From: Phyllobates terribilis
Lineage: Eukaryota
Assembly: GCF_046119375.1 (NCBI RefSeq)
Contig: NW_027362762.1
Coordinates: 857,832,001 to 857,896,000 of the forward strand
Length of the DNA: 64,000 nt
Direction of reading: 5' to 3'
Below are positions 5,790-55,570 of the stretch, one piece after another (the first letter of the stretch is position 1; every line of letters starts with the position of its first letter). The notes under the pieces are model-generated. The model made no database searches, was not told the origin of the DNA, and was given only the letters and a program-made list of their open reading frames with translations. The position numbers and the translations under genes were made by a program.

Positions 5790-6165
5790 TGTATGTCCCC
5801 ACACAGCTCCCTTACACAGTATGATGTCTCCACAAAGTCCCTCACACAGTAGAATGTTCCCACAAAGCCCCTCACACAGGATGTCACCACAGAGCCCCCC
5901 AATCAGCATGATGTACCCACACAGCACCTTAGAGTCTCCTTACAGCCCCCTTGCACAGTATTATGTCCCCATACAGTCCCCTTGAAAAGTATCATGTCCA
6001 AACACAGCCCCTTTGCACAGTATTATGTCCCCACACAGCCCCCTAGTGCAGTATTATGTCCTTACACAGCCCCTTTTTATAGTATTATATCCTCACACAG
6101 CCTCCCATGCCGGATGATGGCCCCACACAGCCCCCTTGCACACTATTAAGTTCCCACAGTTACCC
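5790..6165. repeat. ~29-30-bp minisatellite (cccccacacagtatgatgt-like) inside a non-autonomous DNA element
   Basis: Visible degenerate tandem periodicity; explains ORFs 5736-5927 and 5767-5985. Confidence 0.75.
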
Positions 6166-6398
6166 ACAATTGCTGTCGATTAAAAAAAAAAAGAACTACT
6201 CACCTAACCCCGCTCCCCTGCTGCTCCTGTCTGATCAGTAAACCAAGCAATGTGAACTGAGGTCTAAGATGGTAGACATGCAAGAAATAGGAGCATGTTC
6301 ACACTAGCAAAAAGAAGAAAAACCTACAAAAGACAAAAATATATCTCATACCCTACCATCATTATATATAAATGTAAAGCAAAGTTGCATAATAAATA

Positions 6399-6481
6399 TA
6401 GGGTACTTAGTGAACTATTTTTGATCAAAAAAAGTATACAAGCCGTCCCACCAGCGGCAAGGTGACCCTAAATTGGGACGG
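6399..6481 (-). ncRNA. Candidate HDV-like self-cleaving ribozyme, copy 1
   Basis: Minus strand: P1 CCGUCCC/GGGACGG, P2 UAGGGUC/G(U)ACCCUA, P3 ACC/GGU, 8-nt L3 UUGCCGCU, P4 with UUUUUGAUCAAAAA hairpin, J4/2 CUAA; folded manually. Confidence 0.6.
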
Positions 6482-6829
6482 TACCTATACTGTCTATATT
6501 AAAAACCTTACTGTATATCAAAGTTGAAGTAATGCATATAAAAGGGTAGACAAATAGGACCGGGTCCCAACTCCAGACCACCTAGGCCCGTGGTAAGCTA
6601 CATATATACTAATCAGCTCAACAAAGGGGATGCCACACCCTTAAATTGCACAGAATGCAAACAAGACAAAAAACCAAGCAATGTGAACTGAGGTCTAAGA
6701 TGGTAGACATGCAAGAAATAGGAGCATGTTCACACTAGCAAAAAGAAGAAAAACCTACAAAAGACAAAAATATATCTCATACCCTACCATCATTATATAT
6801 AAATGTAAAGCAAAGTTGCATAATAAATA

Positions 6830-6912
6830 TAGGGTACTTAGTGAACTATTTTTGATCAAAAAAAGTATACAAGCCGTCCCACCAGCGGCAAGGTGACCCT
6901 AAATTGGGACGG
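6830..6912 (-). ncRNA. Candidate HDV-like self-cleaving ribozyme, copy 2
   Basis: Same motif as copy 1, 431 bp downstream on the plus strand. Confidence 0.6.
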
Positions 6913-8442
6913 TACCTATACTGCCTATATTAAAAACCTTACTGTATATCAAAGTTGAAGTAATGCATATAAAAGGGTAGACTGTCTGATCAGTGTACTG
7001 AGGCACAGCTGGCGTGATTTAGTGACGTCATCGCTCCTGTTGCACTCTCTTATGCGCAGGCTCAATGATGTTGATTGTTTCCATCATTATTTTCACCAGT
7101 ATCTGCATCCCCAGGATTCAGATACTTGTGAAAGTGAGACGCCGGGCGGGGAGTGACTGCATGGTGCGGGATGCCACTGTATCCAGGCCTTGGCTGTCCC
7201 GGTCTGCAGTGGAACATTCAAAGTGCTGCATGGTTGCCCAGGTCTAGATAGATAGATAGATAGGCAGACGGGCAGTGTGATTTAGGAAAGTGACTAATCT
7301 CAGATTGTTTGACATTGACATTTTTTTGTTCGTCTGGAGAGCAGGAAGGCAACATAGGAGATGTAAAATATCTATTGTGCTGAATCAGGGACTGTGGTTA
7401 CATGGCATCTTTTGGCTAGACTTGTGCTGACTGCAGTTGTATGCAGACCACGTTCACAATCATTCCTTGTTGTGAAGGGATTCCCTGTGGGCAATTGAAT
7501 TTCCGAGTGTGAAAGCTGTAGGCGGTAGCAGCTCATTGCAAGGTACAGTAACACTTTACAGAGAACTAAAACTGCTTGCAAGGAGATGATCACATATTAG
7601 ATGTAGTCTTATTTCTCATACACCCATTATTAAAGGTGTTGTCCACTTTCAGGAAAGAGGACCCCAAACGCTTTAGAAATGATGGGGAGTCCAATAATAT
7701 CAATTTACCTCTTACATCCTGTATCCATTTAATGAAAGTGCTGGCAGCGCATACTTAGTAAGGCTCTGTTCACATTAATGTTAGTGGGGTTTGTTCAGCT
7801 TCCAAGTAATTTGTACTTTAGAAATAAGTAAGTCTGCAGTTCAATTTATGACATTAAATATTCTGTCTGCAATCTGACTTGAATCACCAAGTAAAAAGGT
7901 AATTATATCCTTATTTATTAGCTTGTATTACATTTCCATTTGCAGTCATATTCAATTTTGATCATATATTCTTGACATCCAGCGTACTCACCCATCATCT
8001 ATGCTGTGTAATTTATTTATAATGACAATCACTCTCTTTGTCATTACAGTGAAGGTGAGCTTGCCACTTCTTCATCCCTGTTACTACCATCACTCAGGAA
8101 TAATGTGATCCTAAAAGTCATGACCTGTTACAATGGATGCACAATAAATGCATCTTGCAGGGATCATTCACATTGGCTGGTAGTGATACTGGCATACTTT
8201 TGAGCTTAGCTTGTACAAATCTACAAAAATAAGTCATTAAGGCCTTCACACACACTGTTTTTACAATGGTTTTATACACTTGAAAAACTCACATAATTTT
8301 CAAGCATTTTTATAGCGTTTTTTTTTTTCTTATTTTGTCATTTTGTTACATTTGCATCATGTATTTTTTTGGTGTTGTTGAAACATATGAAAAAACTGCA
8401 GAATAATGACACACAAACTGCATGCTGTGTTTTTTAATACCC

Positions 8443-10854: not shown

Positions 10855-11371
10855 AGGGGTTGTCCACTACTTATTATCCCCTCCCCAATGTATCCCCCCG
10901 GGGCCCATAAGTGTCTTTGTAATTACCTTCTGTTGCAGGTTCTGCCTGTGAGCGGCGCTATCGCCGGCCGCTCACAGGCATCACGTGACCCCTGAATGCA
11001 GCCGGCTCTGACATCCGCTGACGTCACGACAAATCCAGGCTGCAGCCGAGGGTCCCTCTTCTGCGTTCCACCGGTGGATGCTGGCTTGTGGGCGGGGTTA
11101 CCCAGCACATCCCACCCGGCATCCACCACACGCTCTCCCTCTCCCCATTCATTGGGAAGACACGCAGTGGATGCTGGGTGTGACGCGAGGACCCCAGCGC
11201 TGAGTCACGCCTCACTTGTCGTGACGTCAGCGGGGGGTCACGTGATGCCTGTGAGCGGCCAGCGATAGCGCCGCTCACAGGCAGTAACTGCAATAGAAGG
11301 TATTTACAAATATACTTATGGGCCACGGGGGAATACATTGGGGGCATAATAAAAAGTTGTGGCCAAATTCT
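10855..11371. mobile_element. T2/Kolobok-like palindromic MITE
   Basis: TTAA TSD at 10851-10854 and 11372-11375; starts aggggttgtcca; arms of about 100 bp are inverted repeats; removing it restores the PLE RT frame. Confidence 0.85.
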
Positions 11372-14288
11372 TTAAGGTTTACTTCTTCCAAACCCGATAA
11401 TATAGCGCAATTTTTGGACATAAATTTGGAAGGTGACTTCTGCTTAAACAAAATGCATACATCAATGTATCGTAAACTTATACATGGCAATACAATATTA
11501 CAGGCTAACAGTTGTCACCCAACACATACCATAAAAGCTACTCCTTATGTTGAATTTTTACTAGCGAAAACAATTTGTTCAGACCAATACAGTTTAAAAA
11601 AAAAAATAGATTAATACATAGAGGGTATAACCCAAATGATATAAATAAATCATATGAAAAAGTAATAAAAAAACACGAACTGAACTTTTATTAAGAAAAA
11701 TAATAACAATAATTCCCAAGATAATACCCATTTACTCACATTCAGCATTCTATATAGTTCCCAATTTAACAAAATAGAACAGATCATTTCTAGATACCGA
11801 TCGATGTCACTTAACAAAATTGTAAAAAATAGATGCAGAATGGTAGCAAAAAAAGGCTTATATTTAGGAAATATGTTATCACCCTGATTATATACTGAAT
11901 AAAGTAAAGACAAAACAACATGGTTATCACAAAAAGTCTTTTTTAATTGTGGGGGAAAAATTTTTAATATATGCCAATATATGAAAAAGCAAAAAAATAG
12001 TGACCTTACCACAAAATAAGGAAAGTAAAATTAATTAATTCATAAACTGTAATGCACATCATATAATATATTGTATAACGTGTACCATATGCAATATAAA
12101 TTATACTGTATGCACAGCAAGAAAGTTTAATAACCACTTCGCACCAGAGCCTGTTTTTGCCTTCGTGACCGGGCCAATTTTTTCAATTCTGACCACTGTC
12201 ACTTTATGAAGTAATTACTCTGGAACGCTTCAACGGATTCCCCTGATTCTGAGATTGTTTTTTCGTGACATATTGTACTTCATGATAGTGGTAAAATTTC
12301 TTTGATATCACTTGCGTTTATTTGTGAAAAAATCGGAAATTTGGCAAAAATTTAGAAAATTTTGCAATTTTCAAACTTTGAATTTTCATGCCCTTAAATC
12401 AGAGAGATATGTCACACAAAATAGTTAATAAATAACATTTCCCACATGTCTACTTTACATCAGCACAATTTTAGAACCAACATTTTTTTTGTTAGGGAGC
12501 TATAAGGGTTAAAAGTTGACCAGCGATTTCTCATTTTTCCAACAAAATTTACAAAAACATTTTTTTAGGGACCACATCATATTTGAAGTCACTTTGAGGG
12601 GTCTTTATGACAGAAAATACCCAAAAGTGACACCATTCTAAAAACTGCACCCCTCAAGGTGCTCAAAACCACATTCAAGAACTTTATTAACCCTTCAGGT
12701 GCTTCACAGGAATTTTTGGAATGTGGAAGAAAAAAATTAACATTTAACTTTTTTCACAAAAATGTTACTTTAGACCCAATTTTTTTTATTTTCACAGGGG
12801 TAACAGGAAAAAATGGACCCCAAAATTTTTTGTGCAATTTCTCTTGAGCGCGCTGATACCCCATATGTGATGGAAAACCACTGTTTGGGCGCACTGCAGG
12901 GTTCGGAAGGGAAGGAGCGCCATTAGACTTTTTGAATGTAAAATTTGTCTGAATAATTAGCAGACGCCATGTTGCGTTTGGAGAGCCCCTGATGTTCCTA
13001 AACAGTGGAAACCCCCCAGAAGTGACACCATTTTGGAAACTAGACCCCTTAGGGAACATATCTAGATGTGTGGTGAGCACCTTGAACCCCAAGGTGCTTC
13101 ACAGCAGTTTATAATATTGAGCTGTAAAAATAAAATTTTCACATTTTTCCCACAAAAACGTTTTTCATCCCTTAATTTTGCATTATCATAAGGGTAATAG
13201 GATAAATTGCACCATGAAATTTGTTGTGCAATTTCTCCTGAACACGCCGATACCCCATATGTGGAGGCAAACCACTGTTTGGGTGCACGGCAGGGTTTGA
13301 AAGGGAAGGAGTGCCATTTGACTTTTTGAATGTAAAATTTGTTTGAATAATTAGTGGACACCATGTTGCATTTGGGGAGCCCCTGATGTGCCTAAACAGT
13401 GGAAACCCCCCACAAGTGACAACATTTTGGAAACTAGACCCCTTAGGGAACTTATCTAGATGTGTGGTGAGCACCTTGCACCCCCAGCTGCTTCACAGAA
13501 GTTTATAATATTGAGCCATAAAAATAAAATTTTCACATTTTTCCCACAAAAAATGTTTTTCATTCCCTAATTTTGCATTATCATAAGGGTAACAGGATAA
13601 ATTGCACCATGAAATTTGTTGTACAATTTCTCCTGATACCCCATATGTGGGGGAAAACCACTGCTTTGGTGTACGGCAGGGTTCGGAAGAGAAAGGAGCG
13701 CTATGTTGGCTGGGATAGGCAGCAGACACCATGTCACATTTGAAGAGTCGCTGACATGCCGAAACAGCAGAAACCCCCACAAGTGACCCCATTTTGTAAA
13801 CTATACCTCTCAAGGAATTCATCTAGGGAAGTAGTGAGTATTTTTTAATTTCTAAATTTATACCATTGGGCAGTGAAAAAAGCATAATTATATTTTTACC
13901 ACAAAAAAATGTTTTACCCTCAGATTTTACATTTTCACACAGGGCAATGGGTAAAAATGGTGCCGAAATGTGTCACACAATTTCTTCTAAAAGTGTCAAT
14001 ACCCCATATGTGGCTGTATCGTACCACTCAGCCATACGGCGAGATCTGGGGGGGACGGAGCGCTATTTGACAATTGGAGAACAAATTATTGTAGAATAGG
14101 CATTTGGATTTGGGAGCACAACATTTTCTGAATTTCTTTTGGGGGGCAAGGGCCATTTTGCTTTTCCAGAGCCTTTCTGCTACCAGTAACTTGGAAGTCC
14201 CTTATATTTTTAACAGATGAGGGACCTGAGTGGGGACTAGCTTTTTTTGAGGACTGAGTTGAAGCTTTTATTGGGAACATTTTACGTA

Positions 14289-15246: not shown

Positions 15247-18200
15247 TTTGAGACGCTTTTTTTTTGCAAAATCTAGTTTTTGCATCGCCATATTTTGAGA
15301 GCTATAATTTTTCCATATTTCAGCCGACAGAGTCATGTGACGGCTTGTTTTTTGCGGGACGAGTTGACATTTTTATTGGTACCATTTTTGGGTACAGGAC
15401 ATTTTTTGATCGCTTTCTATTCCGTTTTTTGGGAGGTAAAATTAACAAAAACCAACAATTCAGGAATTGTTTTTTGAGGGTTTTTTTTATGCCGTTCTGC
15501 GTGTGGTAAAAGTGATCAGGCAGCATTATTCTTCGGGTCAGTATGTTTACAGCGATACTACACTTACTGTATATTTTTTTATGTTTTGACGCTTTTACAC
15601 AATAAAACAATTTTATATAAAAAATATTTTTTTTGCATTGCTTTATTCTGAGCGCTATAACTTTTTTATTTTTCGGCTGATTGAGCTGTATGGCGGCTTT
15701 TTTTTTGCGGAACAAGATGACATTTTCAGCAGTACCATTTTTATTTCCATTTTGCTTTTTGATCGCATTTTTTTCCACTTTTTGTTTGGCGATATGAGGA
15801 AAAAGCATAGTTTTTGCTCCGTTTTTTAATTTATTTTTATTACGGTGTGCACAGAAGGAGTTAATTAGTGTGACAGTTTTATAGCTCGGGTTGTTTCGGA
15901 CGCGGCAATACCAAATATGTGTACTTTTTTTATTTTTGCATAAATATACGGATTTATCGGTGTAATATTTTATTTATTTATTTTAATTTATTTTGTATTT
16001 TTTTTTTTTAACAGTTTCAAAACAGCTTTTTTTTACTTTTTTTTACATTTTTACTTAGTCCCTGTATGGGACATTAATTTTTATTTTTCTGATCCCTGAT
16101 CTCATGTAATGTAATAGACATATATTACATTACATGAGATCTTTACTGACTGTTTCACAGTCAGAGTCTCCTGCTGGCTTCAGCTGCAGGCTGAGCCAGG
16201 CAGGACACCATATATGGCAGAGCTGGAGGCGGTCATGTGACCTCCAACTGCCATAGCAACCCAAGGTTCTGGAAGGTATCAGGGGTCGTCGGAGAGGTAA
16301 GTGGACGACCCCCTCTCCTCCTGCTGTCTTCTATATGCCGCGATCACTATAGATCGCGGCATATAGAAGACAGCAAAGGGTTAACATCACTGGGACCTGA
16401 TCCAATCAGGTCCCGATGATGTTCCCTGTCAGAGCTATCGCTCTGCACCGCTCCTGTAGCGCTTGCCGGACCCTGGGGGTCCTGAGCGCTGCGGGACCAC
16501 CCACCGTTTTTAAACGTCCGCGCTGCACAGAGCCCAGGCAGCGCGGACGTTTATCTACAGTGGGCGGTCAGGAAGCTGTTAAGAAGCGTAGATCAGAACA
16601 CATTTACAATATTAACAAGAGTAACGGCACATATTCTGGAGCAACAAAGCACTTTGTCGAGGTACACAATAATAGTTTATCTAATTTTGCATGCCACGGG
16701 ATTGAAAAGGTTACGTTTCCCAAACGAGGAGGTAATGGGCGGAAAAAATTGCTTTTAAGAGAAATTTACTGTATTTTATTGATGAACACAAAACAGCCAA
16801 ATGGTATGAACGATAGAAAGGATACTATATATTTATATTGAAATATTATTTACAAATTTGTCTAACAATTGTGATGTACGGTTAGAAACATTATTAACTT
16901 CTGTTTTTGAAGTTTGCATCTTATTTTTGCACAACATATGGGATTGGCTGTCATGATTTTAAATAGTCTATTCAGTATACTGACGTAATCTCTATGACTA
17001 AGGGCCGTATTTGTGCCGAAAATGTGTAGAGATGAGAGTTTACATAGCAAGAAAGAACTTTTAATGAGGTTGGAATAAAGAAGTGATTTAATACGTACAA
17101 GTAGATGATCTGCTACATTTTTCAAATTCTGCCCATGCTTCTGTTGGTCAGCTGTGAAATCAGCAACCACATCGATATATGACGGAGTCATCTATATACA
17201 CGTGGTGTGTTCAGGAACTTCGTCTAATGTTTCACTATATTCATAGTTTACTGATATTTGGGGATCCGACCATTTAGACCCCAGTGATTCCAAGAATGAG
17301 GCTCTGCATCAATAAAGAAAAGGCCGTACTCGGCCCCTGGCATTAGAGGGAGGCCTGCATGACAGGGATAATGCAGGAGTACAGGGAGAAGTTGATTTGG
17401 GGAGTCAGCGGTTAAACTGGGTTAGAGGTGGGGATCACTGATAGGGGGTGGTGTAGGGTTTATAAGGGATGGCCATTTGCCATGAGGTAGCCATTTTAGG
17501 TGAACACCAAGCCCTCGGGACAATCTGTAGCCATGGATGTAATTGACACCATGCTATAGCAACTTAGACGTGCTGCCGGTCTGCATGGTGCTGAGTGGCT
17601 GCAGGCCTCAGTACAGAGCTAGGTGGTGCTGGGGCCCAACTGAGTCATCCGCCCCAAGCAGGATGCCGGCCGCAGAGGACTAGGCCTCCGGCGCACCTAA
17701 GTCCGGACTTGACCCCTTGAGTTCGGTGCCGTATCAGGAGTCCCTCTCGGGACCCTCTGGTCATGATCTCGGGCCCCAGCTCCAGGGCCCGGCGGTCCTG
17801 TGCCGAGAGGAATCCTACCACCCGGTGGGACTCGCATCAGGGTGAGGTGTCGGCCTCCCCTCCAACCTTTACCTCATCTGCGGTTGCCGGAGCTGGAGCA
17901 GCAGATCCCCCTGCCGGTCAGGGACCCGCTCAGCGCACGGATGCCAGGAGAGCCAGAGGACGGGGACCTAACCAAGAGGCCCCTCTGTGGGATATCCACA
18001 CTGGGCGGCAGTCAGCTTTCCCCGCCCACATCGCGGCGGTGAGGGCCGCAAGTCACGAGAGGCCCTCTGCTCACAGGCAGCAGGGAGCTGGCCCCGCCCC
18101 CAACGTGATATTAACAACAGAAAGTACGGAGATGGATTAACTCCACGGGCAGCCGTCAGCTGGCCCAGCCCACAACTCGGCCATTATAAGGCCTGCTTCA

Positions 18201-18609: not shown

Positions 18610-19900
18610 AGGGGAGACTCTGATGCATTTAGCAGAGATGGCCCCCTTTCTAAATAGGTATCCTGATAGAGCGGCTGCTTTGTTACTCAGGGAAGGTTTT
18701 GATATTGGTTTTAAGATACCGTTAATTTAAAATAAGGTTGGCCTAGCCACAAAAAATTCGGCAATTCAGTTCCCCGAGATTGTTGATGAAAAATGAAAAA
18801 AGGAGGTAGAATTGGTAGGATAGCAGGGCCTTTTGATTACCCCCCCCCCCCATAGGGCTTCCCGGTGAACGACGGTATCGACCCGGAGTTATGTTCAGTG
18901 CTTGACACGTCGTTTCATGCAGCCATTAAATGGGTATGGTTTTTTGAAAAAGGCGCATTACTAGCAAAAACGGATATCAAAGCAGCTTTCAGGTTGCTAC
19001 CGGTTCATCCAGATAGCATACATTTGTTGGGATGTTTTTGGAACGCAGGTTTTTTTGTGGACTGCTGCCTCCCTATGGGCTGTTTGTTGTCTTGCGCATA
19101 TTTCGAGACATTTAGCACTTTTTTGGAATGGGTGGTTAAGGATGTTTCAGGCTTAAATTCTTGCATCCATTATTTGGATGATTTTTTGTATGTCGGCCCA
19201 GCGGTTTCAAACGTTTGTTCTATGTTGTTGCACACGATAGAGAGTGTAGCTATGAAATTTGGGGTTCCATTGGTGGCAGAAAAAAACATGGGCCCTGTGA
19301 CATCCCTTAGTTTTCTTGGGATTCTGATTGATACAGAGGAGATGGAGTGCAGGCTACTGGCAGAAAAATTGTTGATCTGATGGGAGGCGTGTCCAGGGCT
19401 TGGAGGTTACAAAAAATTACCTGGATGGAATTGAAATCCCTCCTGGGTAAGCTGAACTTTGCGTGCAGTATTATGCCAATAGGCAGGGCTTTTTGCAGAC
19501 GGCTATCATTAGCGACAGCAGATGTAAAGGCCCCACCATCATTTTGTCAGGTTATATAAGGAATTGCATGATGATCTGGGGGTCTGGGCAGATTTTTTAC
19601 AAGCATATAACGGCAGATCTCTCTGGATCGAACCAGTGGTGAATGCCAGTGATTTAGAGCTGTTCATTGATGTAGCGGGCCAACAAGGTTTCGGTATCTA
19701 TTTTCAAGGTAGCTGGTTGGCCGAAAAATGGCCTACGGATTGGATAATACAGAGTTTTCTAAGTAATTTGGTGTAAATCAATTTATTCCCTATTGTGGTA
19801 GCATTGGTAGTTTTGGGTGAGAGCATTCGCAATAAAAAGATCCGTTTTCATTAACAGTTAACTCATTATCAGCCTCATCCCCACCCGTGGTGAAGGTGCT
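18610..19900 (+). pseudogene. Ngaro RT / RNase H (frameshifted)
   Basis: KTDIKAAFRLLPVHP, LPMG, HYLDDF; RNase H LFIDVAGQQGFG. Confidence 0.9.
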
Positions 19901-20079
19901 ACAAAGGCTGGTGTTACTACTGTAGGTTTATCGCTGAACATATGGGTGGTGGCGGAATTCAAACCAGGTTACAAAAATCTTATTGCCGATTGTATTTCTC
20001 ATTCACAGTGGGAACGCTTTTGGAGCTTGGTGCCTCAGGCGAAAACAGAAGGCTTGAATTGCCCTTCAGAATTGTGGAA

Positions 20080-20950
20080 TCTTCCCTTCGGTCAGTAAGG
20101 GATTTGATTTCTTTGTCCTTGGCGGACAGAACTTGGTCGTCTTACGAGCGCGCCTGGAAATTGTGAAAGGAGTGGAAATTATCTTTAGGCCCTCTAGTTA
20201 AGGAAGAAAGTTTGTTACTACTATTGGTAGGCCCTTGTTGGGAAAAAGGGTTGTCAGTTTCTTAGATTAACAGTTTTATGGCAGGGTTAGCCTTCGGATT
20301 TAAAGCACAGGGGCTTCGGGACGAAACAAAAACATTTTTAGTCCTTCAATTGCTGAAAGGGTGGCAAAAAGGTTTGAAGGTGAGAGATTGGAGGCGGCCG
20401 GTATTGTACGAACTATTATTGTTAGTAGGTAGTGGTTTGGTTTTGGTCTGTAAGTCGTCATGGGAAATTGGCTTGTTCAAATTGGCATTTTCTTTAGCTT
20501 TTTTCGGAGCCTTAAGATTAGGAGAATCAGTCAGCCCGTGTAGAGTTAAAAAGGGAGGTCTCTTGAGAGAGGATGTGGATCTATATAGGGACAGGATCGA
20601 GGTATTTATTTGGTCTTCAAAAACTGATCAGACAAGAAAAGGTTGCAAAATCGTGCTCTTTGCGGTGGCGGGGTCCAAAATGTATCCAGTGCGATGGCTT
20701 AGGGAGTTCACAATTCCCCATGGTTGGTACACGAAGACGGTTCATTCTTAACCTGTTTTCAGTTTTTAGCATTTTTTCAACACTTCTTGGTTTTAGGAGG
20801 GATTTCGGCAAAAATTATAGTGGTCATTCCTTCAGGATTAGGGCCGCCACGGTGGTAGCCAGAAGGGGTTTAGGTGATGAGCTAGTAAAAAGAATTGGTC
20901 GGTGGAAATCTGCAAGGTTTAGGTCCTACATCCGCCCGGCATGGTTGTAA
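20080..20950 (+). pseudogene. Tyrosine recombinase (frameshifted)
   Basis: AFFGALRLGE, SKTDQ, HSFRIRAAT...GRWKSARFRSYIRP. Confidence 0.9.
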
Positions 20951-21019
20951 TTGGGTGTTTGTTTTTTCGGTTCTTAACGTACTGTGTTATATCGTTTTAT
21001 TTCAGCAGACGGGAGTCAA

Positions 21020-21560
21020 CTGCTGGTGTGGATTATGGGCCACTCATTCGTTTTTGTGGGTAGCTTTAAAGGCAGCGGTGCAGCTGGCCGGGTGACAAAT
21101 GGGATTCTCGAGGGGGCATGGCGTGGAGTCAGCTCCTCACGGAGTTCCATCAGTTTGTCAGGCTCAACCGGGCACCAGAGATACTAGTACTGCATTTGGG
21201 GGGTAACGACTTAGGTAAGAGACCGTGTAGTGAGTTAATTAAGGACATCAAATTTGATATGCTGAGGCTCTGGGCAATGTTCCCTAAAGTTCTAACAATT
21301 TGGTCCAATATAGTTCCTCGGAAGTATTGGCGCGGAGCTCGCTCTAAAGAAGGAATGAATAAAGCGAGAATCAAAGTAAATAGAGCAGTGACTCGCTTTA
21401 CGGTGAGGAATGGGGCGATAGCGGTCCGGCACATGGAGTTGGAGTCAAGCGAAGGCGAGTTTTGGCGTTCAGATGGTATCCATTTAAACGCAGTGGCCAT
21501 TGACATGTGGTGCCTGGCAATACAGAAAGGTATTGAAAAGGGATTGAAGGTTGCACAAAA
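21020..21560 (+). pseudogene. SGNH/GDSL hydrolase ORF of the Ngaro element
   Basis: WIMGHS (block I), LHLGGND (block III), SDGIHL (block V); frameshift between blocks I and III. Confidence 0.85.
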
Positions 21561-23004
21561 TTTGTGTTTATGGCATGGGGGAGGTCCTCAAAGTCGGTGT
21601 TTATGGTTAATGGCAGTGTGGCGGAAGGGGGGGGGGAGCGGAAGGCTCTGGAACCCCTTAGGTGATATTAAGGTGACGGGTGTTAACCACGGGCCCTCCA
21701 ATCCCTTCCCCGGGATTTATGTTTTCAAGTTTATTAGCCAGCTTGTTTACTTGGTGCCTCCGAGCTGGTGCATAACAGCTGGAGGTAAGATGCGAGCTGA
21801 GCTTAGTTGGTCAAAAAAATCCAGACCTGGGTTTTTGGTTTAATTATGGGGCTTCAAGGACCATTTCTCGGGAAGGATGTTATAATTGTTAATTGTATTT
21901 TGTTAATAAAAGGCTGCTGTGGCCATTTAAATCCAACCTTCAGATGTTGCGTGGTTATTGGCCTAATGTAACAGGGTGTTGGGTTGGGTTAGGTTGAGGC
22001 TAACACGACTTGCATATGCCCGTTGTCATGCCGGTTTATTCTTTTCTTCAACATCCGCTAGAATAGGCAGATATAGAGGAGATACAATTGTTATTTTGTG
22101 GTTAAGAGATAAATGTGTGGTATGTGGGATTTTTAGCAAACACGGAGCAAGATCAAAGAAAGAGAAATAATTAAAATGTATTCATTGCTAAGCGAAGTAT
22201 AAGACCAAGAGCAAACAATATAATCTCGGGAAATAAGTTGGGTGTTGCACTATTACTAAGCTAAAGAAAAAAACTGCGAAACTACTAACTGGAAGAAACA
22301 GAAGCAATGTTGGTTACATGCAGCCAGTCAGTCTATGAGACAGATGTGATTTTTTTTATATCAGGTATTACAATGTCTAATAAGGGATGTAGAACTCAAG
22401 CGTTCTACTATAGAGAAACTAGGCTGGACACAGCACCAGAACTTGATGAGTTTTCTCTGTACAGGATGTTTTGGTGCCACATTTTCCTCAAGCAAGTGGA
22501 TATCAGGTATCATATGACACCCTCTGAGCTCATATGGCAGTAATTGGTAACGTGGGTAAATATCCATTAATAATTCACCATGATCATACAGGAGTCCAGG
22601 GACAATACCATTAGTGCAATAAATGTGATACAATCACACAAACTCAAAAACTTTTTTTACAGAGTCCTATGGCTCTTTTCTAAGGTAACATGACGTAATC
22701 TACGATTGGACACTACAACGCTCTTGTGGATTTTGACCCTGCTCTCTCCCCCAACTGCAAGTTGTCACTGATGGGACAAGTCAAGGGTGTTCTGTTTCTT
22801 TAATGATATTTTTTCAGCCAACCCACATATAATAGGGATTAAGATCGTAAAGGAAATCATAAACCTGTCACTGTGGGTGATTTATTGTTTTGTTTTTTTA
22901 CAAATCCAGTGGTGATTTGCTGGCAGAATTTAAGCATTTTTATTTTTTTTATATGAAGAAAAGTAATGGGATACACAATAATAACTGAATTCAGCGTTTC
23001 ATTT

Positions 23005-32045: not shown

Positions 32046-33322
32046 CCAGCTGGAATTATGAGTATCATAAAGATCAAATAACAAAGACATTTTTAAAAAA
32101 GTGATAAAATGTGGAGAAGATTAAAAAAATGGTGAGGAAGTAGGTAAAAAAAAATAGGAGCAAGATAAAAAAAAGTGTAAAAATTTACACTAAAATGGGA
32201 AATAATAATTTGGTCCACATGCAGGCATGATTAAATATGTTCTTAAACACGGGAAAATATTTAAAAAAAGACACCAAATTTTGGGTTCTATTTAAAGATA
32301 ACACATTTTGTCTATAAGAAGGGGATATCATTGTGTAACAAATTAATTCAGTAAGATTTTATTGAAACAAAACTACTCAACACAGATGCGGTTTAAAACT
32401 GAGAAGAGGGGGCAATACCCATGTTTATCTTGTCAGAATTGTATGGCTATCGTGAAAGGTTATTATGTAGTACATTTAATCCCAGGGCATACAATTCCAG
32501 TGAGAAGTTTTTATACCTGTGCTAGTGAAAATGTAATTTATGTCTTAAAATGCCCTTGTGGAAAAGCGTATGTGGGCCAAACGTCACGTCCAATTAAAAT
32601 CCGCTTGACAGAACATCGCTCAGCGATTTGTTTGTTTGAGAAGAAAAGAAATGAGAAAGAGAATGAAAAACAAAAGAAGGATGAGAATACAATTAATAAG
32701 AATAAGAAAATGCTTTGGGAAACAATGGTAGCGCAACACTTTCATGAAGCTGGACATAGAGTGTGTGATCCAAGGCGGTTAGTTGTAGAAAAAATTATTG
32801 GGAAAAATCCAAAACAAATAAAGAAGTAACTTCTCCAATATAGAAACCTTTTGGATTTATACGTAGGACACAGTAAATCCAAAGGATATGAAGGAGAATT
32901 GTAATTTTAATGACTTTAATGTGTTTTTGTAAAAAAGAAAATTCCTCATATGTGGATATGTATGTTATATGTCTTTAATGTGCATGTATTTGTTGTTTTT
33001 AAGAATTGATCACATGATATATTCTATTTAACCCCTTAACAACCGCCAATTAAATGCATTAAAACAGCAGCCGCTAAGGGGCATTATTTCCTCATCACCA
33101 TTTTAAAACAACGATCGGGAATAAGCCTATAGTGGCCCCAGAGTCCGAAAATCTCCAGAGTCTCAACTAGAGGGGGTAGCTAAGACCCTGGAGAACATGA
33201 TCAGGGTTGGATTTTCCATCCCCGATCACATAATTTCCGTTATTCAATGAATAACAACAATCACGTAAGAAGAAAAGTGTGCCCATTGTTAAAATCATTT
33301 CTCTGTCTTCTGACATGATATA

Positions 33323-38621: not shown

Positions 38622-40199
<1,578 letters not shown>

Positions 40200-41367: not shown

Positions 41368-43708
41368 GTTACAGTGGGTATGGAAAGTATTCAGACCCCT
41401 TTAAATTTTTCACTCTTTGTTTCATTGCAGCCATTTGGTAAATTCTAAAAAGTTCATTTTTTTCTCATTAAAGTACACTCTGCACCCCATCTTGACTGAA
41501 AAAAAAAAACAGAACAGAAATGTAGAAATTTTTGCAAATTTATTAAAAAAGAAAAACTGAAATATCACATGGTCATAAGTATTCAGACCCTTTGCTCAGA
41601 CACTCATATTTAAGTCACATGCTGTCCATTTCCTTGTGATCCTCCTTGAGATGGTTCTACTCCTTCATTGGAGTCCAGCTGTGTTTAATTAAACTGATAG
41701 GACTTGATTTGGAAAGGCACACACCTGTCTATATAAGACCCCACAGCTCACAGTGCATGTCAGACCAAATGAGAATCATGAGCTCAAAGGAACTGCCCAA
41801 GGAGCTCAGAGACAGAATTGTGGCAAGGCACAGATCTGGCCAAGGTTACAAAAGAAATTCTGCATTACTCAAGGTTCCTAAGAGCATAGTGGCCTACATA
41901 ATCCTTAAATGGAAGAAGTTTGGGACTACCAGAAGTCTTCCTAGACCTGGCCATCCAGCCAAACTGAGCAATCGTGGGAGAAGAGCCTTGGTGAGAGAGG
42001 TAAAGAAGAACCCCAAGATCACTGTGGCTGAGCTCCAGAGATGAAGTAGGGAGATGGGAGAAAGTTCCACAAAGTCAACTATCACTGCAGCCCTCCACCA
42101 GTTGGGCCGTTATGGCAGAGTGGCTTGACGGAAGCCTCTCCTCAGTGCAAGACATATGAAAGCCTGCATAGAGTTTGCTCAAAAACACATGAAGGACTCT
42201 CAGACTATGAGAAATAAGATTCTCTGGTCTAATGATACGAAGATTGAACTTTTTGGTGATAATTCTAAGCGGTATGTGTGGAGAAAACCAGGCACTGCTC
42301 ATCACCTGCCCAATACAATCACAACAGTGAAACATGGTAAGAAAAGAATTTTGGTGAGTCCCAAAAATAACTAAAATCCTCAATTTATTTCGAAATAATT
42401 TAAAAGATCATACAGGTTGGGAATACATCTCAACGCATTTCTGGCAAAAAGCCAGAGTCACGGCAGGACAAACTACAAGAAGTATTCGGTGATTCAGAAA
42501 GGAACACTGACCCGAGCCTGAAAGAATTAATGCATAAGCTGGAAAAAATCTCTCATCAAGAGTTGAGAACATGGTGGGATCGCAATACCTTGAGTACGTA
42601 TGTGGAAAAATTGATGATACCAAGAGGACTCAGAATTAAAAAGGTACCCACTTATATTTTCTCTGATATATTTCTAAAACAATGGAATGACATTTTATCA
42701 CAATGCTCAATTGACCTCATGAAGTTGATCATCTCTGAGGAAGAGAAAAAATTACAACAAATTAATTTGGACATTGCACAGATAAAATCCTCACTTGTGA
42801 GTTTCAATAAAACTCAGGAGTATGAATTGTTACATCTTAAAATGAAAGAAAATTTGGGCAAATTGAAAATAACATCATGATAATAAAAAAGAAAAAGTTT
42901 CAAAGAGATTGTTTGGATTATAAACATGATAAATTTTATGATAGGAAGAGGAATATAAGATCTATTTCCCCAAATCCAAAAAAACTGAGGGATAAAACTG
43001 ACTTAAAATCTATCCTGAAGAATAATATAGATGACAAAACTCCATCCAGAAATGTAACTTTTTCATCTGTGGAAGGTTTTTCAGATATCATTGCAGAGAG
43101 CTCTGAATCCTCAAAAGATGGAATAGGAGGAGATTGTGGTAATCCTGCTTCAAAAAACGACAGGAGAAGCGACCGAGGAGGAGGAAGAAATCCAGATCCC
43201 CCAAGTTTCAATACGAGGGGCAAGAAAAAGTAGACAACCCATGGTCCAGTGTTATCGTGCTTACCTCTACAATTCTTTCTGAACATGAGATTAATATCTT
43301 AAATAAAGGGACTAATTTTGTTCCTAATCAGGATTTTGATTTATTTCAAACGAATCTAGATGTATATAAACTAGCCAGATTATTGACAGTAAAAAAGCAT
43401 TTTTATAATGATCTCAATGTCCCTGGGGAATTGTATAAGGAGGAGGATAATTGTGAAACCTTTGCACAATTGATGTTTGATGAACGATGTGTGCGGCTTA
43501 CTTTGGAGGATTTAAAATGTGAATCAGGTGAAGTCGATCTAATGAGGGGCGGACCTACCGCCCGTGCAGCCCGTTCATTGAACGGGGGCCCCTCCAGCCT
43601 CCAGCAGGGCCCCCATCAGGGCATGACTATCCTGACTCCAGTATGGGGCCCGGCTGTTCGGGGCCCCCTCGGAACCCCCCTGTTGTGCGTCTCCTCATGG
43701 GGCCCCCG

Positions 43709-45439
43709 CAGGGCCGGCATCAGCACTCAGGCAAATGCCGAGGCCCTGAGCAGGTGGGGGGGGCCCTCACCGTCGGGCACCCTGCGCGCTATGGGACCCG
43801 TGTCAGCGCCCGCTCCCCCCCGCTTGCTCAGGACCCCGGCACCCGGCACAATACTTACCTCTCCCCATGCCTCCGCAGCAGCTCCTGCATTCACCGTGGC
43901 TGCTGCACTGTGACGTGTCAGGTCAGAGGGCGCAGTGACGTCATTACACCGCGCTCTCTCCTGAGCCGTCACAGCGCAGAGCGGGAAGACACCGGCGACG
44001 CTGGAGTTCGGAGCAGAGGCAGCAGGTGAGACGTGAGGTGAGTATTGGATTGTTTTTTTATTGTATGGAGGCATGGGGCAGTATAAGGGAGGGTGGTGAG
44101 GTGGGGGTGTGTGACATCCTGCATGGAGCATTATAAGGGAGGGGGTGTGTGACATCCTGCATGGGGCATTATAAGGGAGGAGGGGTGTAACATCCTGCAT
44201 GGGGCATTATAAGGGGGGTGACATCCTGCATGGGGCATTATAAGGGAGGGGGGTGTGTGTGACATCCTGCATGGGGCATTATGAGGGGGGGGTGTGACAT
44301 CCTGCATGGGGCATTATAAGAGAGGGGGGGTGACATCCTGCATGGGGCATTATAAGGGGGGTGGGTGTGACATCCTGCATGGGGCACTATAAGGGAGGAG
44401 GGGTGTGACATCCTGCATGGGGCATTATAAGGGGGTGTGTGTGACATCCTGCATGGGGCATTATAAGGGAGGGGGGGTGTGACATCCTGCATGGGGCATT
44501 ATAAGGAAGGGGGAGTGTCATCCTGCATGGGGCATTATAAGGGGGGGTGACATCCTATATGGGGGGGGACAGCCTGCATGGGGCATTATGTGGGGGGGGA
44601 CAGCCTGCATGGGGCATTATGTGGGGGGAACAGCCTGCGAGTGGGGCATTATGTTGGGGGAACAGCCTGTGTGGGGCATTATGTGTGGGGAACAGCCTGC
44701 ATGGAGCGTTATATGGGGGCCAGTATCCTGCATGGAGCGTTATATGGGGGCCAGTATCCTGCATGGAGCGTTATATGGGGGTCAGTATTCTGTATGGAGC
44801 ATTTTATGGGGGCCAGTATTCTGTATGGAGCATTATATGGGGGCCAGTATCCTGTATGGAGCATTATATGGGGGCCAGTATCCTGTATGGAGTGTTATAT
44901 GGGGGTCAGTATTCCATATGGAGCGTTATATGGGGGCCAGGATTCTGTATGGAGCATTTTATGGGGGCCAGTATTCTGTATGGAGCATTATATGGGGTCC
45001 AGTATCCTGTATGGAGCATTATATGGGGGCCAGTATCCTGTATGGAGTGTTATATGGGGGTCAGTATTCCGTATGGAGCATTATATGGGGGCCAGTATTC
45101 TGTATGGAGCACTATATGGGGGCCAGTATTCTGTATGGAGCGTTATATGGGGGCCAGTATTCTATATGAAGCATTATATGGGGGCCAGTATCCTGTATGG
45201 AGCGTTATATGGGAGCCAGTATTCTGTATGGAGCGTTATATGGGAGCCAGTATTCTGTATGGAGCGTTATATGGGGACCAGTATTCTGTATGGAGCATTT
45301 TATGGGGGCCAGTCTCCTGTATGGAGCATTTTATGGGGGCCAGTTCCTGTATGGAGCATTTTATGGGGGCCAGTATACTGTATTGTGGAATTTACAATAG
45401 ATATCACTCATGTAATGTAAGAAGTGAAATCTTCGCATT

Positions 45440-47136: not shown

Positions 47137-47522
47137 AATCCCCCGTCACAGTAAGCGAGATCGCTAGCGAGATCGCTGCTGAGTCACAAGTTCTGTGACG
47201 CAACAGCGACCTCAGCAGCGATCTCACTACGTTTGACACGTAGCAGCGACCAGGTCCCCGCTGTGAGATCGCTGATCGTGTTGAAATGGCCTGGACCATT
47301 TTTTGATCATTGAGGTCCCGCTGGGTAGCATGTATCGCTGTGTTTGACACCTTACCAATGACCTTGTTGGCGACTATACGGGTCGCCATATCGTTGCTGC
47401 ATCGTTGGTAAGATCTGACTGTTTGACATCTCACCAGCGACCACACAGCGACGCAGCAACGATCCCTGACAGGTCGTATCGTTGTCGGGATCGCTGTAGC
47501 GTCGCTAAGTGTGACGGTACCC
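47137..47522. mobile_element. MITE (gatcgct-rich) inserted in the PLE thumb region
   Basis: Imperfect TIR cccgtcacagtaagcga / tcgctaagtgtgacggtaccc; removing it restores GNTTL-ADSCHP. Confidence 0.8.
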
Positions 47523-47821
47523 ATAGAGCAGACAGCTGCCACCCCGCCCATACTGTGAATTCAATCCCCTATGGGGAATTAAATAGAATTTATAGAAATA
47601 GCTCTGATATCACACTATTCAATGAACAAGCAAAGGTAGCAACATGTACATTAATGGAAAGGGGGTATAAGAAAAAACATATTGATTCAGCATTAAAAAA
47701 AGTTCTTGTAAGAAATACTCATTTAAACAACAGAGATGATGGTATTAATAACAACAAGAAACCAATAATAATAAAATCTAATAATATGGACAAAAAAAAA
47801 ACATTTTCAGTACCACATATA

Positions 47822-49403
<1,582 letters not shown>

Positions 49404-50220
49404 TAGTTGCCAATTTCAGGAAATAAAAAATATTATAAACAGATATATCCCTGTATTATTCCAAGATCGGGGCTTAAATAAAATCCTGAAAAATGGATTA
49501 GTATGTGTGCCGAGAAAAGGGAGAACAATAGGTGCTACTCTTTCCCTAAGTCTATACATGCCACAAAAAAGTGATAAAAAAAACCTGGTTAAGTTGTAAA
49601 GTTAAGTTTTTTTAAATGTGCATGTTCCAAATGTACGATGTGCCAGTATACATTGCAAACTCAAAAAATTGATGTGCCTAATAATATTAAAAGATTTATC
49701 AATTGAAATACAAATTATGTTGTGTATTGTATATTTTGCAAAGAATGTAAAATAAAATACATTGGCTGCACAATACGTAAATGAAAGAAAAGGATGGCAG
49801 AACATATTACCAACATCAAAAATAAAAACGCATCCTATTCAGGAGCATGCAAGCATTTTGTAGAGAGACATAAAGAGGAATTAAACAATTTTTCATTCTA
49901 TGGGATAGAAAAAGTGAATATTCCTATTAGAGGAGGGGATGGGAGGAAAAAACTCCTCCTAATTATTTTGGATCATTAAACTTGATACAAAATACCCCAA
50001 CGTCATGAACCATAGGAATGATACTCTTTACCTATATTAAATTTTTAAATTTTAGGGATTTGAATGCAGGTTTTCTTTTTTCTCCTTCTGGTTTCCCTTG
50101 TGATTTAGCCTTGTGATTATGCTAATTATTCTCAAATGTGATCGATTGTTAACATATTTGCTTCTTGATCAACGGTTAGTTACCATTTGTTTTTATGCCA
50201 TGTATCATAAGGAATCTGTA

Positions 50221-53129: not shown

Positions 53130-55570
53130 TACCCAAAAATGACACCATTCTAAAAACTGCACCCCTCAAGGTGCTCAAAACCACATTCAAGAAGTTTATT
53201 AACCCTTCACGTGCTTCACAGGAATTTTTGGAATGGGGAAGAAAAAAATGAACATTTAACTTTTTTCACAAAAATGTTACTTTAGACACCAATTTTTTAT
53301 TTTTAAGGGGTAACAGGAAAAAATGAACCCCAAAATTTGTTGTGCAATTACCCCTGAGTACGCAGATACCCCATATGTGGGGAAAAAACCTTGGGCGCAC
53401 ATCAGGGCTCAGAAGGGAAGGAGCGCCATTTAACTTTTTGAATGTAAAATTTGCTTGAGTAATTAGCGGACGCCATGTTGCGTTTGGAGAGCCCCTGATG
53501 TGCCTAAACAGTGGAAACCCCCCACAAGTGACACCATTTTGGAAACTAGACCCCTCAGGGAACTTATCTAGATGTGTGGTGAGCATCTTGAACCCCCAGG
53601 TGCTTCACAGAAGTTTATAACATGGAGCCGTGAAAATAAAATTTTCACATTTTTCCCACAAAAATGTTTTTCAGCCCCGAGTTGTGCATTTTCATAAGGG
53701 TAACAGGAGAAATTGCACCATGAAACTTGTTGTGCAATCTCTCCTGAGTAAGCCGATACCCCATATGTGGGGAAAAACCACTGTTTGGACGCACAGTAGG
53801 GTTCGGAAGGGAAGGAGCGCTATTTGACTTTTTGAATGTAAAATTTGCTTGAATAATTAGTGGACGCCATATTGCGTTTGGAGAGCCCCTGATGTGCCTA
53901 AACAGTGGAAACCCCCCACAAGTGACACCATTTTGGAAACTAGACCCCTCAGGGAACTTATCTAGATGTGTGGTGAGCATCTTGAACCCTCAGGTGCTTC
54001 ACAGAAGTTTATAACATGGAGCCGTGAAAATAAAATTTTCACATTTTTCCCACAAAAATGTTTTTCAGCCCCCAGTTGTGCATTTTCATAAGGGTAACAG
54101 GAGAAATTGCACCATGCAACTTGTTGTGCAATCTCTGCTGAGTAAGCCGATACTCCATATGTGGGGGAAAACCACTGTTTGGGCGCACGGCAGGGTTCGG
54201 AAGGGAAGGAGCGCCATTTGACTTTTTGAATCTAAAATTTGCTTGAATAATTAGCAGACGCCATGTTGCGTTTGGAGAGCCCCTGATGTGCCTAAACAGT
54301 GGAAGCCCCCCACAAGTGACACCATTTTGGAAACTAGACCCCTCAGGGAACTTATCTAGATGTGTGGTGAGCATCTTTAACCCCCAGGTGCTTCACAGAA
54401 GTTTATAACATGGAGCCGTGAAAATAAAATTTTCAAATTTTTCCCACAAAAATGTTTTTCAGCCCCCAGTTGTGCATTTTCATAAGGGTAACAGGAGAAA
54501 TTGCACCATGCAACTTGTGCAATCTCTCCTGAGTAAGCTGATACCCCATATGTGGGAGAAAACCACTGTTTGGGTGCACGGCAGGGTTCGGAAAGGAAGG
54601 AGCACCATTTGACTTTTTGAATCTAAAATTTGCTTGAATAATTAGCGGACGCCATGTTGCGTTTGGAGAGCCCCTGATGTGCCTAAACAGTGGAAACCCC
54701 CCACAAGTGACACCATTTTGGAAACTAGACCCCTCAGGGAACTTATCTAGATGTGTGGTGAGCATCTTTAACCCCCAGGTGCTTCACAGAAGTTTATAAC
54801 ATGGAGCCGTGAAAATAAAATTTTCAAATTTTTCCCACAAAAATGTTTTTCAGCCCCCAGTTTTGCATTTTCATAAGGGTAACGGGAGAAATTGCATCAT
54901 GCAACTTGTTGTGCAATCTCTCCTGAGTAAGCCGATACCCCATATGTGGGGGAAAACCACTGTTTGGGCGCACGGCAGGATTGGGAAGGGAAGGAGCGCC
55001 ATTTGACTTTTTGAATGTAAAATTTGCTTGAATAATTAGCGGATGTGCCCATGATGTGCCTAAACAGTGGAAAACCCCCACAAGTTACACCATTTTGGAA
55101 ACTAGACCCCTGAGGAAAGTTATCTAGATGTGTCGTGAGCACCCTTAACCCCCAGGTGCTTCACAGAAGTTTAGAAAATGAAGCCATGAAAATAAAAAAA
55201 TCTAACTTTTTCCACAAAAATGATCTTTTTGCCCCAATTTTTTTAGTTTCACAAGGGTAAGAGGAGAAAATGGAACCTAAAAACTGTTGTGCAATTTCTC
55301 CTGAGTACACCAATACTGCATATGTGGGGAAAATACACTGTTTGGGCGCACGTCAGGGTTCAGAAGGGAAGGAGCACTGTGTGACTTTTTGAACGCAAAA
55401 TTGCCTGGAATCAAGAGAGGACACCATGTCGCAATTCGGGAGCCCCTGATGTGCCGAAATAGTGGAAACCCCCCACAAGTGACCCCATTTTGGAAACTAG
55501 ACCCCTCAAGAATTTTATCAAGGGGTATAGTGTACATTTTGAACCCAAAGGTACGACAGAATTTGATAAC
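53130..55570. repeat. ~394-bp tandem array, ~6-7 units, inside the piggyBac-like element
   Basis: cacaagtgacaccattttggaaactagacccc recurs at ~53523, 53917, 54311, 54702, 55080 and 55474; explains the repeated MLTTHLDKFP ORFs. Confidence 0.92.

Follow-up and report, generated by a model that had tools for sequence, protein, structure and literature searches.

A high-copy, non-coding tandem retroelement with a predicted HDV-type ribozyme in each unit in the genome of Phyllobates terribilis

A 64,000-nucleotide stretch of the Phyllobates terribilis genome (assembly GCF_046119375.1, contig NW_027362762.1, positions 857,832,001 to 857,896,000 of the forward strand; hereafter, the window) contains a 742-bp non-coding insertion that belongs to a dispersed family of tandem repeats, each unit of which is predicted to carry a ribozyme of the hepatitis delta virus (HDV) type. 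Our analysis points to a tandem retroelement that is likely mobilized by the protein of a Penelope-like element (PLE) and probably copied from a ligated RNA circle. Taken as a whole chain, and judged from sequence, this reading has about an even chance of being correct, and its parts can be stated with different degrees of confidence.

The insertion and its predicted ribozyme

The insertion at 6240-6981 comprises one full 431-bp unit and 311 bp of the next (1.72 units), and it is bordered by exact 13-bp direct repeats at 6227-6239 and 6982-6994, i.e., a target-site duplication (TSD). The two unit copies differ at 1 of 311 positions (6493 versus 6924). The GC content of the insertion is 37.6%, and since the longest stop-free stretch in the circularized unit spans 65 amino acids, there is no meaningful open reading frame (ORF). 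A by-eye search for snRNA-type and RNA polymerase III promoter motifs, made against consensus sequences, found nothing convincing. The initial annotation of this DNA had reported 1.7 non-coding units of 431 bp with an exact 13-bp TSD; its coordinates and sequence agree with ours, and the insertion is real, not an artefact. Units are numbered here from the predicted cleavage site, so that +1 corresponds to window position 6481 or 6912 (Table 1). Although 5' ends differ among family copies, the 3' end of the window insertion (+242) falls within an end window found across the family.

On the minus strand, P1, P2, P3, P1.1 and P4 are present in the correct order for a nested double pseudoknot, each helix lying where it had initially been placed, and the helices of the second copy sit 431 positions higher. 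An HDV double-pseudoknot descriptor, composed after the motif had been seen, matched only two places in the window, both of them in the insertion, and matched none of 60 shuffled windows and none of 3000 shuffled units. In HDV numbering, the unit retains the predicted catalytic C followed by A in J4/2, as well as the U and CG of L3. An A(-1).C wobble that would lengthen P1 to 8 bp was also considered and was dropped in favor of a G-C pair at P1.1.

Several observations weigh against an HDV-type assignment. The covariance-model search for HDV, CPEB3 and HDV-like ribozymes that had been proposed at the outset came back empty: Rfam gave no HDV, CPEB3 or drz match in the window at E values up to 10, and no HDV-family match in six loci of older subfamilies at E values up to 5. 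In addition, P2 of the young family is one base shorter than that of older families, which leaves a bulge or an unpaired C. Finally, nested folding returned P1 with probabilities of 0.92-1.0 but preferred alternatives over P2 and P3, the program being unable to form a pseudoknot.

The C at +1 is paired with G in 106 of 107 young-family units and in 22 of 26 old-family loci. A purine-pyrimidine pair at the cleavage site is the general, though not universal, consensus of HDV-like ribozymes, and the C-G pair of this family departs from it. This departure rules out the classical subtype only, because active C-G variants exist (PMC3185411, PMC5640933). More specifically, L1TcRz cleaves 5' of C1 and has a one-pair P1.1, with one construct active without P2 (PMC3185411), and cleaving fungal HDV-like variants combine C-G at the cleavage site with an extra C between P2 and P3 (PMC5640933). 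The weak points initially listed for the window ribozyme (C+1, a one-pair P1.1 and a bulge in P2) are thus genuine features of the unit that have active precedents in L1Tc and in fungi.

Table 1. Positions of the insertion and its predicted parts in the window
Feature	Position	Strand	Remark
TSD, left copy (13 bp)	6227..6239		exact repeat
TSD, right copy (13 bp)	6982..6994		exact repeat
Whole insertion (742 bp)	6240..6981	-	5' end ~+363, 3' end +242
Predicted ribozyme-to-ribozyme monomer, 431 nt (+1 to +431)	6482..6912	-	cleavage sites inferred from HDV fold
Predicted HDV-like ribozyme, downstream copy	6399..6481	-	predicted cleavage between 6482 and 6481, 5' of C+1
Predicted HDV-like ribozyme, upstream copy	6830..6912	-	predicted cleavage between 6913 and 6912
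P1	6481-6475 with 6449-6443	-	7 bp; two P1 pairs change on both sides
P2	6470-6464 with 6406-6399	-	
P3	6463-6461 with 6452-6450	-	3 bp
L3	6460-6453	-	
J1/4	6442-6441	-	C6442 pairs with G6458 (P1.1)
P4 hairpin	6440-6411	-	
J4/2	6410-6407	-	predicted catalytic C6410
First family-wide 3'-end window (+152 to +174), putative reverse-transcription start 1	6308..6330, also 6739-6761	-	
Second family-wide 3'-end window (+234 to +256), putative reverse-transcription start 2	6240..6248	-	insertion stops at +242
Hairpin between end windows (+182-207)	6275..6300, also 6706-6731	-	present in older subfamilies too

Family size and selection on the fold

A search of the 10.6-Gb genome, as the initial annotation had proposed, used 25 bases of the ribozyme core as the probe and matched exactly at 26,998 places, against none for a reversed control; the family must have more units than this, since 58 of 107 sampled units differ at +25. 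The copies form dispersed head-to-tail arrays on many contigs, with fewer than 2 to more than 20 units per array and young-family periods of 421, 431 and 438-439 bp. Three degenerate patterns, with 663, 65 and 246 matches, led to older subfamilies, and the 65 matches to the pattern with the other third base of L3 were all variants of the same superfamily. These older subfamilies are likewise tandem, with units of ~350-460 bp that are homologous over their entire length (roughly 40-80% per bin). The whole unit also occurs, with two differences each, in sequence runs of two other organisms, and a third has a diverged relative. The family is thus high-copy, non-coding and TSD-forming, as expected of the non-autonomous tandem retroelement that had been suggested from the window alone. 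One of its insertions is carried in at least 17 copies of a ~45-kb segmental repeat (L025-L030; G000:C8, 313.9-315.1 Mb).

We are highly confident, from the pattern of sequence variation, that the HDV-type fold is real and under selection, and we consider active cleavage within the family likely. In an alignment of 31 ribozymes (29 distinct), 95.7% of cells were paired, compared with 38-55% in slid controls, and 3 of 17 pairs showed two-sided changes, which sort by subfamily. One P2 pair is swapped between subfamilies, with A-U at 16 of 30 loci, U-A at the other 14 and pairing at all 30; a by-eye count of the same pair among the 100 matches listed gave 63, 31 and 6 unpaired. Within P1, pair 2 shifts from C-G to U-A between subfamilies, pair 3 occurs as G-C, G-U, A-U and U-A, and the young family has G-C where old families have G-U. 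P3 and P1.1 never vary on both sides and therefore add no covariation. The covariation check originally proposed for P1, P2 and P3 thus holds for the first two helices, P3 showing no two-sided change.

This covariation has to be read with caution in four respects. Most of P2 and the whole of P3 were prescribed by the search pattern, so that many alignment columns were forced; the compensatory changes represent only ~3 evolutionary events; P1 pair 3 is a U-U mismatch in three neighboring copies (L141-L143); and some of the apparent P1 changes were produced by CpG decay.

A conservation test free of the search bias used 26 of 30 loci recovered with the first degenerate pattern (663 matches), leaving out one young-family junction, one unrelated match and two second arms. 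At pattern-free positions, the old majority sequence and the young unit were identical at 28 of 31 core positions, whereas of 141 sites in the flanks, J1/2 and P4, 76 were identical (Fisher p=7e-5). All 4 unforced positions of J4/2 were identical between old and young, and the catalytic C was kept in 19 of 26 decayed old copies; conservation of L3 is not independent evidence because the search patterns forced it. Furthermore, fixed differences among 21 young arrays fell at 1 of 48 core sites versus 35 of 346 other sites (p=0.048), whereas mutation rates after insertion were equal (0.62% versus 0.58%). Core conservation between old and young, together with the sparing of the core among young arrays at equal post-insertion rates, argues that the fold has been selected in the propagating lineage. 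Collectively, the compensatory changes in P1 and P2 and this selective conservation uphold the HDV-type fold that had been proposed from the window sequence.

Mobilizer and RNA template

We examined the insertion footprint at 34 loci, chosen as top matches, as the first to occur on one contig or for a junction at +1, and therefore not a random sample. Five ran beyond the examined stretch and one (L184) duplicates another (L183), leaving 28 independent insertions. Eighteen of the 28 were inverted (head-to-head), and in all 18 one arm ended at +152-173 and the other at +215-256 (17 of them at +234-256). The 10 direct insertions ended at +242-251 (8) or +156-157 (2). Flanking repeats of at least 10 bp were found in 22 of the 28 (14 bp in 11, 12-15 bp in 18, mode 14 bp), no poly(A) or simple-repeat tail was seen in the family insertions, and older subfamilies end in the same two windows. 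At one locus (L006:682-3233), the target duplication measures 59 bp instead of ~14 bp.

The published Penelope architecture matches this footprint, comprising partial tandems with a tail and with one truncated arm in inverted orientation (PMC8557442, PMC3846280), and a PLE studied in vitro has two internal reverse-transcription starts and cuts both target strands (PMC11167929). The P. terribilis genome contains intact ORFs of 804-856 amino acids, from several families, that encode reverse transcriptase (RT) and GIY-YIG domains. Among 46 such PLE loci scanned, 8 had inverted arms whose two ends could both be seen, and in 5 of these 8 the TSD measures 14-15 bp and the tail 58-70 nt. The loci L224-L243 represent four or more young families of intact Penelope-like elements, with hammerhead cores in the terminal repeats of those inspected.

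Two findings count against this assignment. Among 80 loci with Penelope-like ORFs (a first look counted 37,926 candidates, of which 150 were scored), none qualified as an autonomous partner, there being no credible HDV motif and no real homology to the unit, pseudo-long terminal repeats (pLTRs) included. L194 gave one loose, AT-rich match to the HDV motif, and the best sequence match between unit and PLE, a T-rich stretch of 25 nt, was treated as chance. Moreover, the tails of the sampled PLEs (58-70 nt) are shorter than that of the retrozyme-like element (~80-95 nt). The matching footprint therefore supports the class of mobilizer well, whereas none of the 80 loci supplies the partner element itself. 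On this basis, we hold Penelope-type mobilization to be quite probable. Mobilization in trans, as initially annotated, fits a non-autonomous retroelement, but the mobilizer is most likely Penelope-like and not of the R2/RTE/L1 type.

Two pairs of neighboring loci on G000:C1 have related structures. L183 and L184, ~120 kb apart, share the same 15-bp TSD and inversion junction with the central segment flipped, which suggests duplication followed by recombination between inverted arms. L179 and L180, ~30 kb apart, have an identical inversion junction (+170/+404) despite different TSDs and subfamilies, and this pair shows one 421-type unit within a 439-type array.

To identify the RNA template, we counted the junctions located precisely at +1, which numbered 23 genome-wide versus 14 at a control position (p=0.19). 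The majority of these 23 are fold-backs or small indels, with ~6 plain starts, and fold-back junctions through P1 cannot be placed more precisely than the 7 nt of self-complementarity allow. Such junctions recur near 1503 in L153, L154, L155, L166 and L168, as if the cDNA end had re-primed on its own P1 complement. The lack of an excess of +1 starts rules out run-off at the cleavage site as the main route. Since copies read through +1 without any such excess, a cleaved linear RNA is not the usual template, which leaves a circle or an uncleaved multimer; these two are inseparable on the genomic data.

We lean modestly toward a circular template because it would explain both the selection on the catalytic core and the upkeep of long arrays. 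Short young arrays are near-homogeneous (5 of 5 units identical in L184; units also identical in L178 and L185), private variants are fixed in all units of 3 of 21 arrays, and linked minority variants common to arrays numbered 0 against 0.7 expected (17 arrays, low power). On the other side, the long arrays L175, L186, L189, L190 and L192 show period-3 and period-4 patterns and mosaics, so that a monomer circle alone would be insufficient, and in vitro the dominant template of an anole PLE was uncleaved RNA (PMC11167929).

The strongest alternative keeps the same element and a Penelope-type mobilizer but has an uncleaved linear multimer as the template. The ribozyme would then be slow or protein-assisted and kept for another step, such as trimming an upstream host transcript or acting late, and long arrays would be rebuilt by template jumps and unequal crossing-over. 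Every copy does read through +1, and higher-order and mosaic arrays do occur; in the anole PLE, insertion was unaffected by hammerhead mutants and unprocessed RNA was the main substrate (PMC11167929), and a 2026 preprint prefers local amplification (bioRxiv 10.64898/2026.07.22.740005). However, arrays are subfamily-uniform, some have private variants fixed in them, and loci do not have multi-unit heterogeneity in common. Repeated 5' truncation would also be expected to shorten arrays unless a step re-amplified them, and selection on the catalytic core implies that cleavage matters for propagation. We regard this alternative as possible, though less probable than a circular template.

It is unlikely that a ribozyme functional in older subfamilies has become inactive in the young family (units of 421-439 bp), which would then spread as a ribozyme-independent Penelope parasite. 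The young unit has lost one P2 base, has an extra L3 base and shows competing folds. Nonetheless, the short P2 is already found in the old copies L094, L099, L106, L115 and L118, and an unpaired C between P2 and P3 together with C-G at +1 matches an active fungal variant (PMC5640933). The sparing of the core among young subfamilies (1/48 versus 35/346) and the young G-C in P1 where old families have G-U likewise speak against a dead ribozyme.

More improbable still is a derivative, resembling a short interspersed element, of an L1/Tx1, RTE or Ingi/Vingi long interspersed element (LINE), with a tandemly duplicated 5' ribozyme module and inversions made by L1-type twin priming. For L1 twin priming one would expect internal sites that vary, whereas the second arm here always ends in one fixed window (18/18). 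Poly(A) and simple-repeat tails are absent, there are two end windows instead of a single 3' end, and the 5' end of the element does not lie at the ribozyme, as the +1 junctions (23 versus 14 in the control) indicate. In favor of a LINE origin, HDV-like ribozymes are known at the 5' ends of R2, RTE and L1Tc/ingi (PMC6765202, PMC7936874), and L1Tc shows C+1, a one-pair P1.1 and TSDs of ~12 bp; it is possible that the ribozyme itself derives from such a LINE. A LINE untranslated region duplicated once by chance, which the initial annotation had named as a refuting outcome, is ruled out by the covariation and the dispersed TSD-flanked arrays. Finally, a chance pseudoknot in an ordinary satellite or once-duplicated untranslated region, for which the missing Rfam match could be cited, is extremely improbable given the descriptor results on shuffles (0/60 and 0/3000), the covariation, the core conservation and the TSD-flanked copies dispersed on many contigs.

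Returning to the RNA circle, we envisage the following sequence of events. The array would be transcribed by read-through on the minus strand of the window, and successive units would be cleaved 5' of C+1 into 431-nt monomers with a 5'-OH and a 2',3'-cyclic phosphate, which a host RtcB-type ligase would close; RtcB-type ligation of hammerhead retrozymes has been shown in vitro (PMC7229834). A Penelope-like protein would nick both target strands ~14 bp apart and prime cDNA internally near +160 and +245, after which the RT would roll round the circle to produce 1 to >5 units per arm. Local duplication may later enlarge some arrays.

In one old subfamily, the hairpin at +182-207 resembles the 3' half of a hammerhead (GAAA, a 7-bp stem and a cleavage-type triplet), with CUGA 15 nt upstream and the rest of the hammerhead core absent; this post hoc resemblance was matched by 29 of 3000 shuffles. 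The hairpin is just possibly a remnant of hammerhead stem III, a lead for a hammerhead-to-HDV swap and not a result. A more far-reaching proposal, which we consider possible but doubtful, is a genome-encoded circular-RNA replicon, that is, a Penelope-dependent retrozyme that lost its hammerhead, of which stem III would persist as a remnant between the two reverse-transcription starts, captured an HDV-like ribozyme and is copied round a circle from these two fixed starts.

Window context, known relatives and implications

Elsewhere in the window, degenerate Penelope-like ORF fragments lie at 32347-32829, 42404-43913, 47348-47860, 49578-49955, 11360-11584 and 16545-16823. Matches by tblastn to intact PLE families cover 32383-32911, 49578-49955, 11360-11584 and 16545-16823, the other fragments being judged by eye, and Pfam gave no match in five degenerate window ORFs. 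Near-identical 336-amino-acid open frames at 38930-39940 (+) and 48081-49091 (-), in opposite orientation, appear by inspection to be Tc1-type transposase-like. Fragments at 18856-21843 resemble the RT, tyrosine-recombinase and hydrolase ORFs of what, by inspection, looks like a DIRS-type element. A tandem repeat of 394 bp x 5.6 at 53308-55508 has no HDV-descriptor match, and a 31-bp minisatellite at 5793-6158 lies ~70 bp from the insertion.

R2 SIDE is reportedly a non-autonomous element with an HDV-like ribozyme. SIDER2 and NARTc are also non-coding retroelements with HDV-like ribozymes, SIDER2 having two adjacent signatures (PMC4035085). Unlike these three, which are described as single-unit LINE derivatives starting at the ribozyme, the family reported here forms multi-unit arrays with inverted arms.

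The element most closely parallels the metazoan non-LTR retrozymes (Cervera and de la Pena 2020, PMC7229834; Li, Clavereau and Pollet 2026, bioRxiv 10.64898/2026.07.22.740005), with which it shares non-coding tandem units of a few hundred bp (~150-450 bp), a GC content below 50%, one ribozyme per unit, no LTR, TSDs of more than 4 bp, amphibian-scale copy number and proposed PLE mobilization. In those retrozymes, however, the type I hammerhead serves both as the defining feature and as the means of detection, whereas our unit has a predicted HDV-type fold, no CUGANGA hammerhead core on either strand and no pLTR homology in the 80 loci compared. We therefore do not class it as a non-LTR retrozyme, because the type I hammerhead is absent, even though it would work like one.

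Endonuclease-positive PLEs and their derivatives (PMC8557442, PMC11167929, PMC3846280) likewise form partial tandems in which an inverted arm is truncated at its 5' end and one arm bears a tail, and they have two internal reverse-transcription starts; the TSD length of the element is that of the PLEs in this genome. The differences are its lack of an ORF, its HDV-type rather than hammerhead ribozyme and its tail of ~80-95 nt, as opposed to 30-40 nt in published PLEs and 58-70 nt in the families sampled here.

In its ribozyme, the element resembles L1TcRz (PMC3185411, PMC4035085) and the fungal variants of Li and Breaker (2017; PMC5640933), all of which have a nested double pseudoknot and C at +1. 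The one-pair P1.1 is common to the element and L1Tc, and the extra C that the fungal variant has between P2 and P3 agrees with one of the ways in which the young family can be read; the element shows no evident counterpart of the loop E in the fungal P4. L1Tc has a single ribozyme at the 5' end of a LINE and the fungal ribozymes occur in varied gene contexts, whereas this element repeats its ribozyme in every mobile tandem unit.

The literature assigns HDV-like ribozymes to the 5' ends of LINEs, and hammerheads to PLEs and retrozymes (PMC7229834, PMC7761336, PMC6765202, PMC7936874, PMC11721086, PMC4035085). In the openly accessible literature that was searched, no HDV-type ribozyme turned up in any element that is tandem or linked to Penelope, and all described retrozymes found there use a hammerhead. 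To that extent, the initial impression that the combination had not been described stands, although the repeat may already be catalogued, for instance in Dfam or Repbase, without its ribozyme.

The association of HDV-like ribozymes with LINEs, and of hammerheads with retrozymes and Penelope elements (PMC7936874, PMC7761336), does not hold for this family. It would seem that a retrozyme can exchange its ribozyme as a module, and that screening for hammerheads only, as in the 2026 vertebrate survey, misses entire families of tens of thousands of units. With young near-identical copies, two fixed reverse-transcription starts and 14-bp TSDs, the family makes the choice between a circle and an uncleaved multimer directly testable for Penelope-mobilized RNAs. 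If circles are made, it would supply a genome-encoded stage of HDV ribozyme plus circular RNA, which is assumed for a cellular origin of delta-like agents (PMC7761336). Should the replicon proposal also prove true, it would be the first case of an HDV ribozyme processing a cellular circular-RNA element, and would offer a direct model of the way in which animal genomes could give rise to delta-like circles.

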